From positions 96,001 through 160,000 of the forward strand of contig CAWGZR010000004.1 of NCBI GenBank assembly GCA_963827165.1: 64,000 nucleotides of DNA, written 5' to 3'. A program made the position numbers and the translations under genes. Shown piece after piece: positions 27,526-35,947 of the stretch. Numbering within the stretch: the first letter of the stretch is position 1; every line of letters starts with the position of its first letter. Under the pieces are notes generated by a model. That model was not told the origin of the DNA. It ran no database searches and saw only the letters and a program-made list of their open reading frames with translations. This stretch comes from Candidatus Bathyarchaeota archaeon. GTDB lineage: Archaea > Thermoproteota > Bathyarchaeia > Bathyarchaeales > Bathycorpusculaceae.

Positions 27526-27723
27526 TCATTTGGCGAGTTGCTTCCCTTCTAAACTAACAGCGTTTAGGTTTACGCCTTGAGGTGTGGAGGAATCATCAAT
27601 TAGATGCGCAGTTCCATCCGGGCAATAGACTTTATCACCCTTGAAGGCTTTTTGGTAACGCCTGGCACACTCTCTTAATCGGGAGCATCCGTCACAATCT
27701 CTTGACAGTATTTTTATAATCAC
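27526..27723 (-). CDS. Small Cys-rich protein, last gene of the nif operon
   Basis: GTGA overlap with DUF364 gene; SRDCDGC..C...CPDGTAHL shared with 15131..15256. Confidence 0.7.
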   Translation of the reverse strand: MIIKILSRDCDGCSRLRECARRYQKAFKGDKVYCPDGTAHLIDDSSTPQGVNLNAVSLEGKQLAK

Positions 27724-28526
27724 CTCTTTTCCTTTTTTGGAACCACGTGATTAACGAACCTTAGACTAACTTTTTGACCCGTAGAGTATATCCTGTTGTT
27801 TTCTTGACCTGAGCAAATACGAAAAGCTTTTTCGCCATCCTTAATGACAAAGCCAGACAAGTTCTTAACACCAAATTGTGAAAGAACTGGCGCTAATGGT
27901 GTAGAGGGTCCAACGATAACCACATGTGCCTGTTTTGAAAGATTCAGGAAGCGGGGCAATGACTTGTCTACGAGGGAACTGCATGTGATGAAAACGTAGT
28001 CACATTCTGGGAGGATGTATTCTGCTGCGGTGTAGGGGTATTCGCCTTCTTCTGGTTCGCGTCCGAGAATTGAAAGATCACAGACAGGCTGAAACAGTGG
28101 CTCCAGATAGGGAAAATGCTCAATGACAGCGACTTTTTTGTTTCGAATGGCGTTTTGGTATGAAATGAAAGGGTCGTAAACTCTGTCTTCTATAAATTTG
28201 CTGTTGGAGATGCAAACGCCGTTTTTTCTGGCGACAGGCAGTGAATTGTAGTATGCGTTGATTGCTGCTTGGCCTATGCTTGCCTCGATAAGATTCCATG
28301 ATTTTATGCAGGCTGCAAGGTCTCTTAGCTTCATGCCGGGCAGTTTATTTGTAGTAGTGGGGGGCAAGTTATCTTGATATATCACTACGCAAAAGCCATA
28401 GCCTTCTCCGCTTCGGACAAGGGCACTATGCGCTCCGCATACTAACTCATCCACTATACATTCTTTGGGTATCCCTTCAATTAGAGAGTCATATAACTGC
28501 CACATACTGATTTTCCCCGATTTCAT
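27720..28526 (-). CDS. DUF364 (Rossmann-like, putative heavy-metal chelation) protein
   Basis: SWN..EASIGQAAINA, FITCSSLVDK, VGPSTP. Confidence 0.75.
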   Translation of the reverse strand: MKSGKISMWQLYDSLIEGIPKECIVDELVCGAHSALVRSGEGYGFCVVIYQDNLPPTTTNKLPGMKLRDLAACIKSWNLIEASIGQAAINAYYNSLPVARKNGVCISNSKFIEDRVYDPFISYQNAIRNKKVAVIEHFPYLEPLFQPVCDLSILGREPEEGEYPYTAAEYILPECDYVFITCSSLVDKSLPRFLNLSKQAHVVIVGPSTPLAPVLSQFGVKNLSGFVIKDGEKAFRICSGQENNRIYSTGQKVSLRFVNHVVPKKEKR

Positions 28527-29538
28527 CTTGCATTTCCTTCAATACTATGATATCACCTGAACGCAGTTGCTGACGAATTGACATTAAAACAGTAGTCAAT
28601 CTTTGAATGTGGACTAAGCTTTCTTTCTCTTCAGCTGACGTCTCAATGATTTTGTATATTCCGCCGTTTTGTATGACAATTCTCTTATCGGCGCTCAACG
28701 CCAAAAGTGGGTCATGTGTAGAGATGAGCACGATTTTATCTTTATTAGCCAACAAACTGACTGCTCGTTTCCAGTCAATGCCCGCGTTTTCAATTTCATC
28801 TATGAGCACGATAGGAGAAGCGCTTAAGTAAGCTGTGTCAGCGATCATAAGCGCTCTTGATTGACCTCCCGAAAGCTGAGTCACCTTGGTTTCCGACATG
28901 AATTTCTCGCCTACCAATTCATTTGCGCATACAAAACATTGTTTTATAATTTGGTCTGAGTTTTCGCGCAGCCGGCTTTTGGCGTGCATTTCAAGGAACT
29001 CTAACACGCTCAGGTCCATGACGAAATTCATGTTCTGCGACAGCTGAGCCACAAGTTTGCCGTCCATACTGAAGCGGTCTTTATCGCTGAGTGCTTTTCC
29101 GTTAATTAGTACCTGACGTTTTGTGGGCGTGTCTCGCTGAGCAATACATTCGATATCATTTAAAAGCTGGCTTTTACCAGATCCGGTGGAACCGACGATA
29201 CTTATAATCTGTCCTGCCTTTATGGTAATACATGCAGCTTCACGTTGCCCGAATTTGTTTCGCCCGCCAAGTATCGTGATAGAACGAATCTTATCATGCT
29301 GTACATCACTTTCAAGCATGGTGTCGAGGAACATCGTGAATTGATTGACGATATCGGCCCTCGAAAATCCGAACTCGGCAAGCTTGTCTTCATTGGCCTG
29401 GGCCAGTACTGTAGCAAGTGGACCCGTTCTTGGCAGATTCTCAAGATTATAATCAACAAAAAAATCCCTTGCTACTGGGTAAAGTGCCAGGATTTCTTGT
29501 ATGTTTTTGGTTTCGACCAGTTTTTTAAAATCTATCAT
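28489..29538 (-). CDS. ABC-type ATPase with N-terminal extension, no permease
   Basis: GSTGSGKS, LSGGQ, LIDEIEN, STHDP. Confidence 0.8.
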   Translation of the reverse strand: MIDFKKLVETKNIQEILALYPVARDFFVDYNLENLPRTGPLATVLAQANEDKLAEFGFSRADIVNQFTMFLDTMLESDVQHDKIRSITILGGRNKFGQREAACITIKAGQIISIVGSTGSGKSQLLNDIECIAQRDTPTKRQVLINGKALSDKDRFSMDGKLVAQLSQNMNFVMDLSVLEFLEMHAKSRLRENSDQIIKQCFVCANELVGEKFMSETKVTQLSGGQSRALMIADTAYLSASPIVLIDEIENAGIDWKRAVSLLANKDKIVLISTHDPLLALSADKRIVIQNGGIYKIIETSAEEKESLVHIQRLTTVLMSIRQQLRSGDIIVLKEMQDEIGENQYVAVI

Positions 29539-29541
29539 AAT

Positions 29542-34221: not shown

Positions 34222-34231
34222 CTACTTCACC

Positions 34232-35128
34232 TCAATCGCTGGATCGACCATAACCACTGAAATGTGTACCGCAGGTTTCCTCCCCAGGCACTCCCATGGC
34301 GTCGGCTCTGCATTGGACGCAGTTGTGAAACTGGAATAGCATGCCTTCGCACAGGTGCCGGATTCTTTGAATTTCCTGCAGAGACGGAGCTGGAATGTAG
34401 GCGAATTTAGCTTGGGGAATCAGGGGCATAATGTTCATTATGTAAGCGCCCATGTCACGTACAGTTCTGGCTACGTCAACTACATGTTCTGAGTTTACGC
34501 CTGGAATGAACACTGAGTTAACTTTGACGACTATACCTGCGTCAGCGGCGGCTCGTAATCCGTCGAGTTGATTTTTGCTAAGGATCTCGAACGCTTTTCT
34601 ACCCAAGTATGTCTTGTTTTGGTAGCGAACGAAAGAGTAAATCTGCTCACCTACCTTGGGGTCTACTGCGTTGATAGTAATTGTGAGGGCTGAAACGCCG
34701 ACCTCTTTTAGTTGGGCAAGTTTTTCTGGTAGCAGCAGCCCGTTTGTTGAAACGCAACGGGTTAAATGTGGAAACTCCTTTTTCACTTGGCGAAGAGTGT
34801 CAAATGTGACGTCGCTGCTAAGTGGGTCGCCTGGGCCAGCAATGCCTACGACACGCAGCCGAGGGTCTTTTTGCACTGCAAACCGCACTCGCTCTATCGC
34901 TTCTTCAGCCGTTATCACTTTGCTTGTAACGCCGGGACGGTTCTCGTTCGCGCAGTCGTATTTTCGAACACAATAGTTGCAGCCTATGTTACATGTTGAT
35001 ACTACGGGAAGATGTAGTCTGCCAAACTTGAAATGCGCTCCGGAACCGTAACAGGGGTGCTCTTGCACTATTTGAGAGCAAATCTTCTTGCGTATCTCTG
35101 ATTTTTCATAGCTAACCATCTTTTTCAC
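34232..35128 (-). CDS. nifB: NifB radical SAM cofactor-core synthase (no NifX domain)
   Basis: HPC, CNIGCNYC, ENRPG, AGPGDPL, CVQCRADA. Confidence 0.9.
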   Translation of the reverse strand: MKKMVSYEKSEIRKKICSQIVQEHPCYGSGAHFKFGRLHLPVVSTCNIGCNYCVRKYDCANENRPGVTSKVITAEEAIERVRFAVQKDPRLRVVGIAGPGDPLSSDVTFDTLRQVKKEFPHLTRCVSTNGLLLPEKLAQLKEVGVSALTITINAVDPKVGEQIYSFVRYQNKTYLGRKAFEILSKNQLDGLRAAADAGIVVKVNSVFIPGVNSEHVVDVARTVRDMGAYIMNIMPLIPQAKFAYIPAPSLQEIQRIRHLCEGMLFQFHNCVQCRADAMGVPGEETCGTHFSGYGRSSD

Positions 35129-35947
35129 CTAGTCCACGATACCGAATTCCCGCATTAAACTCTCTAATTCGTCTATACTGATTGGTGTGGGAATCGTAAA
35201 CACGTCGTTTTTCACAATTTTGCATGCTAGACTTCTATACACGCCAGCTTGAGCCGCTGTAGGATCAAAATCTATGACAGTTTTTCTGTGTATCTCAGCC
35301 TTCTGCACTAGGTTATCTCTTGGAATGAAGTGGATTAAGCGGCTGTTGATACGTTTTGCGAATTCCGTTACTAGGGCTTCTTCGTTTTCAACTTTTCTTG
35401 AGTTGCAGATGATTCCGCCTAAACGGGTGTGCCCTTGTTCTGCGAATTTTTTGATGCCCTTGCAGATGTTGTTTGCCGCGTATAGTGACATATACTCTCC
35501 TGATGCTACAATGTAGATTTCCTGCGCGTATCCCTCGCGTATAGGCATTGCGAAGCCTCCGCAAACCACATCGCCCAGAACATCATAAAATACGAAGTCT
35601 AAATCGTCTTTATACATGCCTAATTCATGTAGTGTTTGAATTGAGGTAATGATTCCTCTGCCACCACAGCCTACTCCAGGTTCTGGGCCGCCTGATTCTA
35701 CGCAAGTGACACCGCCAAAACCTATTGCTGAGATTAGCTCTGGCGATACCTGGCCTCCGCCGTCGCGAAGCACGTCCAATACAGTGGATTGCCGTTTTCC
35801 ATTTAAAAGTAAACGTGTGCAGTCTGCTTTTGGATCGCAACCAAGAAGCAGGATTTTTTTTCCCATCTCAGCTAACGCTGAGACTGTGTTTTGGGTTGTT
35901 GTGCTTTTTCCTATTCCGCCTTTTCCATATATTGCAATTTGTCTCAT
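35129..35947 (-). CDS. nifH: Nitrogenase iron protein
   Basis: [36 protein letters not shown]. Confidence 0.95.

Follow-up and report, generated by a model that had tools for sequence, protein, structure and literature searches.

A NifEN-free nifHBDK locus with a linked synthase gene in a genome of the Bathyarchaeia

The stretch of DNA analysed here, referred to as the window, comprises 64,000 nucleotides (nt) of a Candidatus Bathyarchaeota archaeon (assembly GCA_963827165.1, contig CAWGZR010000004.1, positions 96,001 to 160,000). Between positions 35947 and 27526 of its minus strand it carries nine open reading frames (ORFs): nifH, nifB, nifD, nifK, a gene of the homocitrate/isopropylmalate/citramalate synthase family, and genes for a GTPase, an ABC-type ATPase, a DUF364 protein and a small cysteine-containing protein. 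Judged from the sequence, the locus is a genuine and intact nitrogenase operon in a Bathyarchaeia genome, NifEN-independent in type and under selection. With a probability of slightly more than three quarters, the locus encodes a NifHDK enzyme which would mature without a scaffold on NifDK itself, contain molybdenum and obtain its homocitrate from the linked synthase, and the last four genes would be an add-on that is dispensable for the lineage. The earlier note on this DNA had proposed a possibly functional scaffold-free nitrogenase in a non-euryarchaeal host; the ligands, the NifD tree, the lack of nifEN and the Bathyarchaeia host support this proposal, but both the observation and the inference have already been in print since 2024.

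The nine-gene, tightly packed set described in the earlier note was recovered ORF by ORF, and ORFs, coordinates and Pfam/NCBIfam scores agree (Table 1). According to the ORF coordinates, the spacing of the genes ranges from an overlap of 38 nt to a gap of 17 nt. NifH possesses the P-loop GKGGIGKS (residues 8-15) as well as Cys94 and Cys129 in cluster-ligand motifs, i.e. both [4Fe-4S] ligands are present. NifB matches TIGR01290 at positions 7-280 of 441 only, which corresponds to the radical-SAM (S-adenosylmethionine) core without the NifX-like tail, and because this tail is missing the score stays under the cut-off. The CxxxCxxC motif is located at residues 46-53, and residues 17-290 align to solved NifB structures (best chains 7jmb_A, 7bi7_A and 7jma_A; E about 4e-91).

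The ligands of both metal clusters, which had been noticed before in NifD and NifK, could each be located and aligned. In alignments to solved chains and labelled representatives, the P-cluster cysteines of NifD are Cys47, Cys73 and Cys136; Gln173 and His177 lie in SQSLGHH, Cys254 in CARS and His419 in NGH. Further residues that are kept in NifD comprise Gly54-Val55, Arg81, Gly333-Gly334-Pro-Arg336 (GGPR), Phe358 and Lys403-Glu404. In NifK, the alignment to solved chains places the cysteines at Cys30, Cys55 and Cys113 and the serine of TPSY at Ser146, so that all six P-cluster cysteines (three in each subunit) and the beta serine are present. At the positions of Cys254 and His419, the representatives of VnfD, NifD-I and NifD-II likewise have Cys and His, as is also seen in the alignment to 5n6y_A, whereas the NifE representatives lack that His. 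In Azotobacter vinelandii numbering, we take alpha-Cys275 and alpha-His442 to be the equivalents of these two residues.

Comparison to solved structures led to the same assignment. The best relative of NifD is 9spz_A (514.7 bits); NifK reached 411.6 bits with 9spz_B, 402.5 with 9p1x_B and 361.6 with 1mio_B, but just 196.7 with the NifN chain 3pdi_B. The CfbD model (TIGR03282) scored only 41.6 bits on NifD. A stop codon for selenocysteine in the NifD gene of the related locus L010 was considered and ruled out; the frame is open, and only its first codon is not ATG, GTG or TTG.

Regarding the whole source genome (G000; 3.13 Mb, 14 contigs, 94.5% complete), only two matches to PF00148 were found, namely nifD and nifK, and consequently there is no nifEN and no cfbD in the genome; a nifEN pair elsewhere, as considered in the earlier note, does not occur. 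One true NifH and one NifB are encoded, and two stand-alone NifX-like domains occur outside the window on contigs C5 and C3. AnfG/VnfG (PF03139) had no match in the genome, and the control with M. acetivorans was positive. The statement that the window is devoid of nifE/N, nifI, vnf/anfG and a molybdate transporter therefore extends to the genome for the first three; regarding the fourth it has to be corrected, since a locus with a ModE-like gene, modA, modB and modC is located on contig C3 (around 253.7-257.1 kb), in which modB scores above its cut-off (208.8 versus 182.6) and modA is frame-split. Measured by the six-gene minimum nifHDKENB given as criterion in PMC11573651, nifE and nifN are missing, yet the Roseiflexus-type lineage is a known exception to this minimum.

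The phylogeny of NifD was analysed in a quick tree of 51 rows, for which the database protein P0001 served as window row, and in a careful tree of 33 rows, for which the window's own translation was used. Both were rooted on NifE rows, and no Mar or Cfb sequences were included. Representatives of 50%-identity clusters were added, and 20 of these were compared to NCBIfam. Their labels included VnfD, NifD group I-like or II-like, and NifE, and the rest passed only the general nitrogenase-alpha subfamily or no cut-off. The Bathyarchaeia NifD clade obtained a support of 100/100 in both trees and is nested in a clade (100/98) with Chloroflexota, Caldicellulosiruptor and Vnf rows, apart from NifD-I/II and NifE. 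In the careful tree, a 100/99 branch parts the NifD of the window from the NifE representatives. The grouping with NifE, which had been named as the result that would speak against a nitrogenase, was thus not obtained, and the sequence comparison places this NifD in a true nitrogenase lineage. P0001, which the database gives as the NifD of the window itself, differs from the translation of the window in one position (Thr at residue 175, where the window has Leu, codon CTA).

The database neighbours of NifD fall into two tiers. The first comprises 23 other proteins (P0002-P0024) with 73-84% identity, and the two with an organism name are both from Bathyarchaeota/Bathyarchaeia; the second (60% or less) includes Caldicellulosiruptor, Schekmanbacteria, archaeal metagenome-assembled genomes (MAGs), Chloroflexaceae and Roseiflexus. 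In a scan with one genome per species, six related loci with 80-96% NifD identity were found, five of them labelled Bathyarchaeota/Bathyarchaeia and one 'uncultured archaeon'. The contig of the window also encodes an archaeal-type SepSecS, an aSelB-type factor and a selenocysteine tRNA (tRNA-Sec). The host is a Bathyarchaeia archaeon and hence non-euryarchaeal.

Within the class, an even sample of 401 genomes was searched for a high-scoring D/K pair, which was present in eight genomes including G000, six in its own genus and two in the sister genus; two of the eight (G347 and G368) are single-contig genomes. The order nifH-nifB-nifD-nifK-synthase was kept in all 12 other distinct Bathyarchaeia loci, and the conserved unit consists of these five genes only. 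In comparison to L010, which is the closest of these loci (96% NifD identity), dN/dS (the ratio of nonsynonymous to synonymous substitution rates) was 0.033 for nifH, 0.078 for nifB, 0.052 for nifD and 0.050 for nifK. For the synthase gene it was 0.093, and the five-gene set is under purifying selection.

Exactly two PF00148 matches were also found in six of the seven other nif-bearing genomes of the class sample. The exception, G368, has four, and the extra two belong to L031 and L032, two nitrogenase-like loci in which NifH-like, D-like and K-like genes occur together. Sibling genomes within the genus of G000 (L030:5171-8690; also L031, L032 and several others) carry this different nitrogenase-like set, which is missing from G000. 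In L030, it consists of an ORF of 740 amino acids (aa), in which a NifH-like part (375 bits on nifH, residues 6-272) is joined to a NifD/E-like part (about 114 bits, residues 286-691); a K/N-like gene of 464 aa comes next. As hidden NifEN these pairs were ruled out: they are fused to NifH and reach about 100-114 bits on the nifE/nifD models, and most of the genomes that contain them lack nifDK. A further nitrogenase-like system, which retains NifB, was observed in a genome of another family (G081, L033:6668-11008); there, two D/K-like genes are clustered with genes for NifH-like and NifB-like proteins (51% and 45% identity, respectively). In the nif locus of G423, a second NifH-like gene (65% identical, L053:8981-9796) is located behind the synthase gene.

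From these data, the following function is proposed. Together, NifH as ATP-dependent reductase and NifDK would make up a nitrogenase from the same early-branching lineage as the enzymes of Chloroflexota (Roseiflexus). NifB would build the 8Fe core, and because no NifEN exists, the final cofactor would be completed from this core on NifDK itself, by analogy with Roseiflexus in vitro. The synthase encoded downstream would provide homocitrate, and the metal would most likely be molybdenum. In this genome alone, the unit appears to be extended by a laterally spreading set of G3E GTPase, orphan ABC ATPase and DUF364 protein, together with the small Cys ORF. For N2 reduction in vivo, self-scaffolding and the use of molybdenum, this scheme is a prediction from gene content and conserved residues.

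Several results weigh against the proposed scheme. NifD stays below the cut-off of the nifD equivalog (507.9 versus 653.55) and exceeds that of the TIGR01284 'alternative nitrogenase alpha' subfamily (571.1 versus 512.8), the best model of NifK is vnfK (397.1 bits), and the CARS and GGPR motifs of NifD are VnfD-like. The clade of Chloroflexota and archaeal MAGs is sister to the Bathyarchaeia clade in the quick tree with a support of 92 in the SH-aLRT (Shimodaira-Hasegawa-like approximate likelihood ratio test), and in the careful tree it is part of a three-way split without resolution. On contig C3, modA (L018:4164-5250), located behind the ModE-like gene and before intact modB and modC, extends over three reading frames with two shifts and is either a pseudogene or the product of a long-read assembly error. 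No P-II protein (GlnB/GlnK/NifI) was found in the 94.5%-complete genome, which encodes a nitrogenase and glutamine synthetase. For Roseiflexus, diazotrophic growth is not shown according to PMC11573651. Finally, the synthase scores under every curated NCBIfam cut-off (nifV, TIGR02660: 271.8 versus 462.9), and the sequences most similar to it belong to a housekeeping paralogue that is widespread.

The designation nifV in the earlier note is supported by the linkage to nifDK, as the gene directly follows nifK in all 12 other Bathyarchaeia loci; in view of the score on TIGR02660, it is a positional label. The best-scoring model is the isopropylmalate-synthase subfamily (304.4 versus 517), names of such synthases vary among the database sources, and members of the family also make isopropylmalate, citramalate or Re-citrate. 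Homocitrate as product is suggested by the position of the gene. The best 120 database matches are all at least 74% identical, and the named ones are from Bathyarchaeota except for one 'Candidatus Nanoarchaeia' MAG. A copy with about 72-77% identity was present in 43 of the 46 genomes of the genus, and nif-bearing genomes have two.

In the tree of the synthases, 15 copies not beside nif formed one clade with a support of 100, and all 14 nif-linked rows were located outside of it. The 15 rows, which were taken as 2.2-kb pieces, include four from genomes with a nif locus elsewhere (G000, G347, G324 and G421) and five from genomes without a high-scoring D/K pair (G038, G326, G393, G127 and G370). 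In G411, the nif locus lies on another contig (G411:C46, matching L011), and in G423 (L053) it shares the contig with the copy at a distance of about 280 kb; for these two and for G403, G417, G427 and G416, whose nif status was not established, the assignment as not nif-linked was made without reading the neighbourhood of the copy. Since the non-nif copies form their own supported clade and are widespread in the genus, the sequences identify the nif-linked gene as a paralogue of a resident Bathyarchaeial gene, which was not obviously imported together with nifHBDK. G000 contains also a third copy (71-73% identical, G000:C9:298110-299323), which is broken by one TAA codon.

It is unlikely, though it is the strongest of the alternatives, that the locus encodes a reductase of the nitrogenase lineage which does not support diazotrophy in vivo and acts on another substrate or is retained for a secondary activity, for example H2 evolution or detoxification. 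Such a role would fit the missing P-II/NifI proteins, which normally take part in nif regulation in archaea, and the quite different nitrogenase-like sets in members of the same genus, which imply that the fold is used for other chemistry in this lineage, too. Likewise, the only biochemically studied NifEN-less system is that of Roseiflexus, for which, as mentioned, growth on N2 was never shown. However, the Roseiflexus enzyme reduces N2 in vitro, and all mappable residues listed for N2-reducing enzymes in PMC11573651 are conserved in the window. Moreover, the co-conservation of NifB and a homocitrate-type synthase in all 12 other loci fits a cofactor that bears homocitrate.

The cofactor might also differ from the iron-molybdenum cofactor (FeMo-co) and contain vanadium or only iron, or be a Mo-free cluster similar to the NifB cofactor, a simpler product which would fit the absence of NifEN. 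This possibility, to which the Vnf-like features of NifD and NifK and the interrupted modA contribute, is distinctly improbable. The breaks in modA may be assembly errors, VnfG/AnfG is missing, and the remaining equivalog scores are far under their cut-offs (VNFD 474.7 versus 823.1; ANFD 444.1 versus 873.8; vnfK 397.1 versus 873.95; anfK 352.4 versus 853.85). Furthermore, the enzyme of Methanocaldococcus infernus is likewise Vnf-like by sequence and has GGPR, yet it contains molybdenum, as demonstrated by anomalous diffraction for NifDK (9SPZ/9SQ3; bioRxiv 10.1101/2025.10.10.681579), and the NifD of Roseiflexus has GGPR and makes FeMo-co (PMC11573651). With M. infernus as an example, the resemblance to alternative nitrogenases in the NCBIfam scores loses its weight.

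That binning or assembly wrongly brought the nif genes into this genome from a bacterium, e.g. a member of the Chloroflexota, is scarcely credible: although the locus was laterally acquired and an earlier report of a Bathyarchaeia nitrogenase was ascribed to contamination on short contigs, both as stated in PMC11697101, the window occupies 96-160 kb of a contig which is long and also encodes archaeal SepSecS, an aSelB-type factor and tRNA-Sec, the same locus occurs in the single-contig genomes G347 and G368, and the 23 other NifD proteins with at least 73% identity form a tight group, after which the next matches fall to 60%.

Among the known systems, three allow comparison to the nitrogenase proposed here. 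NifH, NifB and apo-NifDK of Roseiflexus suffice in vitro for the synthesis of FeMo-co and the reduction of N2 (PMC11573651). As remarked in the earlier note, nifHBDK without nifEN occurs in some Chloroflexota. Roseiflexus sp. RS-1 has in common with the window a nifHBDK cluster without nifEN and a NifD with the same ligand set and GGPR, and the NifD of the window is 55% identical to that of R. castenholzii (P0101) and 56% to that of a Roseiflexus sp. (P0080). However, Roseiflexus is a bacterial thermophile with what PMC11573651 terms a 'basic nifHBDK gene cluster', whereas the Bathyarchaeia loci always have the synthase after nifK and the archaeal enzyme is known from its genes alone. The NifDK of M. 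infernus is the closest solved structure and has compact subunits that are Vnf-like by sequence with FeMo-co inside, according to the preprint; in contrast to G000, which has no P-II protein at all, it derives from a methanogen and co-purifies with NifI1,2.

Closest of all is the Bathy-6 lineage of PMC11697101, to which the source organism belongs; the related locus L014 is labelled as a MAG of that study. As described there, nifHBDK is present without nifEN in Bathy-6 MAGs, the active-site residues of NifD are conserved, the Nif proteins cluster with a deeply branching Chloroflexaceae clade, and a nitrogenase cluster is reported for the first time from an archaeon that belongs to no methanogen lineage. 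The window agrees with it in host class, gene order from nifH to nifK, lack of nifE and nifN, active-site residues of NifD and a probable affinity to Chloroflexota. It differs in the GTPase, ATPase, DUF364 and small ORF downstream, which are specific to G000 among the genomes examined. The main text of PMC11697101, apart from the supplements, makes no mention of homocitrate, nifV or modA.

Table 1. Genes and other features of the nif locus and its upstream region in the window, with the evidence for each assignment
Feature	Position	Strand	Evidence
nifH, Fe protein, 272 aa	35129..35947	-	TIGR01287 433.1 bits (cut-off 394.35)
nifB, single-domain radical-SAM protein, 298 aa, GTG start	34232..35128	-	TIGR01290 324.6 bits (cut-off 343.65)
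nifD, nitrogenase alpha subunit, 458 aa	32845..34221	-	TIGR01862 595.2 bits (cut-off 486.05)
nifK, nitrogenase beta subunit, 454 aa	31514..32878	-	PF00148 423.2 bits; 34-nt overlap with nifD
nif-linked gene of the homocitrate/isopropylmalate/citramalate synthase family, 421 aa, putative nifV	30231..31496	-	HMGL-like 135.6 bits and HCS_D2 57.7 bits
G3E-type (CobW/HypB/UreG-like) GTPase, 228 aa	29542..30228	-	PF02492 46.4 bits (cut-off 20.7)
ABC-type ATPase without permease partner, 349 aa	28489..29538	-	ABC_tran 62.7 bits, residues 104-248
DUF4213 and DUF364 protein, 268 aa	27720..28526	-	PF04016 105.5 bits and PF13938 60.1 bits
Four-Cys ORF, 65 aa, GTG start	27526..27723	-	Translation; 4-nt overlap with the DUF364 gene
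T-rich stretch right behind the last stop codon, presumed end of the transcription unit	27495..27525	-	Sequence reading; T runs
AT-rich 324-nt intergenic region 5' of nifH, presumed promoter	35948..36271	-	Sequence reading
184-aa protein, possible ribbon-helix-helix N-terminus, candidate co-regulator	36272..36826	-	Sub-threshold RHH_1
Lrp/AsnC-family regulator, 138 aa, upstream of nifH	36850..37266	-	PF01037 42.4 bits; HTH_24 31.1 bits

Gene order and packing agree with the nine-gene operon described in the earlier note, but the last four genes are outside of the conserved unit and were found behind the synthase gene in none of the 12 other Bathyarchaeia loci. The GTPase possesses the motifs GPPSSGKT, CPDH, ESAG, CNRCSPH and TKSD, i.e. 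P-loop, switch, NKxD-type and Cys/His metal motifs are all present, and it stays under the cut-offs of the hypB and ureG equivalogs. Homologues with 68-75% identity occur in Sporomusa, Paenibacillus, Ethanoligenens, Acetobacterium, Desulfitobacterium and methanogens. None of the five other nif-bearing genomes that were searched gave a match to the GTPase at E<=1e-20, and among the 401 Bathyarchaeia genomes it is present in two, G000 and one with a 37%-identical match. Because of this distribution, the GTPase module is probably a recent add-on.

The ABC ATPase has the Walker A motif at residues 116-123, LSGGQ at 222-226 and an N-terminal extension of about 100 aa, for which Pfam gave a sub-threshold hint of DUF1858 (E 0.058); a BLASTP comparison of this N-terminus to the DUF1858 region of a Fusobacterium protein gave no match. 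In the Fusobacterium record, the pair of GTPase and ATPase (61% and 60% identity) is located behind a DUF1858-SBP (substrate-binding protein) gene and beside ZnuA-type genes, and nif or Mo genes are absent, which makes it less likely that the module is specific to Mo or nif in the strict sense. The modules of G3E GTPase and permease-less ABC ATPase (and DUF364) in anaerobes thus have the same gene pair and the same motifs, but here the module lies inside the nif operon directly after the synthase gene. To our knowledge, no experimental function has been reported for it.

A second DUF364 copy in the source genome (L023:8414-14683, contig C11) is part of the gene order FmdE, periplasmic binding protein, FecCD permease, ABC ATPase, zinc-finger FmdE, DUF4213 and DUF364 protein, MinD/ParA-like P-loop protein and DUF362. 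A link of DUF364 to Mo and nif is documented for M. maripaludis, where such a gene is described as part of a modABC operon and as cofit with nifH, and the sole characterised DUF364 enzyme is reported to cyclise methyl-SAM.

The ORF of 65 aa has cysteines at positions 10, 13, 19 and 34. As a nif-specific Cys peptide it was ruled out, as it is one of eight related small ORFs scattered over the genome (27526-27723 and 15128-15310 in the window, two on C12 and one each on C11, C5, C2 and C3). They have the core SRDCDGC...C...RY...(V/F)(Y/F)CPDGT(A/V)HL(I/V)D in common, each is preceded by a GAGGTGA-like ribosome-binding site, and the conservation ends at the ends of the ORFs. No family match was obtained, and no hit above 0.76 in the ESM Atlas. 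A homologue is located upstream of nifH in L012.

Taken from sequence and gene context, the four genes may be read as a recently inserted, generally metal-handling module which is co-transcribed with nif and dispensable for the lineage, and plausibly they help in the delivery of metal or cofactor. A more specific version is rather unlikely: the captured bacterial-type set of GTPase, ATPase and DUF364 protein would drive the delivery of Mo (or of a cluster) to NifDK at the expense of nucleotides and replace a maturation of the NifEN/NifQ type, and the nif-linked synthase would derive from duplication of the resident gene. The link of the GTPase module to Mo is drawn from gene context.

Upstream of nifH, the bin 36001-38000, which covers this area, has a guanine-plus-cytosine content of 0.338. 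A homologue of the Lrp/AsnC-family regulator adjoins nifH in L010 (74% identity) and L029 (64% identity), and control of nif by this regulator can be presumed. The protein of 184 aa had no Pfam match at E<=0.001, its match to RHH_1 being sub-threshold (E 0.0029; 17.9 bits versus a cut-off of 20.5); in L010 and L029, its homologues adjoin the Lrp gene. Immediately behind the nif operon and on the opposite strand (18828-27279), the window encodes a PAS histidine kinase, a CheB-CheR fusion of 1052 aa with PAS and a PAS/GAF histidine kinase of 976 aa; a CheB-CheR homologue flanks nif also in L013.

The selenocysteine machinery of the window (57706-61540) comprises an ORF of 731 aa (59901-57706, minus strand), SepSecS (60106-61452) and tRNA-Sec (61457-61540). 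In the ORF, a KTI12/PSTK-like kinase domain (residues 8-219) is fused to an EF-Tu GTPase with aSelB domain III. A literature search for Bathyarchaeia and selenocysteine retrieved no paper that has this subject in its title.

The case for nitrogen fixation in Thermoproteota and for a minimal gene set was already made in 2024. Beyond the main texts of PMC11697101 and PMC11573651, the window contributes modest additions, namely the conserved five-gene unit, the evidence for a synthase that is a native paralogue and the GTPase module as a genome-specific insertion, as well as the genome-wide confirmation. Near-identical nif operons with and without GTPase, ATPase and DUF364 protein represent a natural experiment on an unstudied module. 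If the enzyme works, nitrogen fixation reaches the Thermoproteota, which are abundant archaea of anoxic sediment, peat and digesters, and the five-gene set of nifH, nifB, nifD, nifK and the synthase gene would be among the smallest natural nitrogenase systems and useful for engineering.

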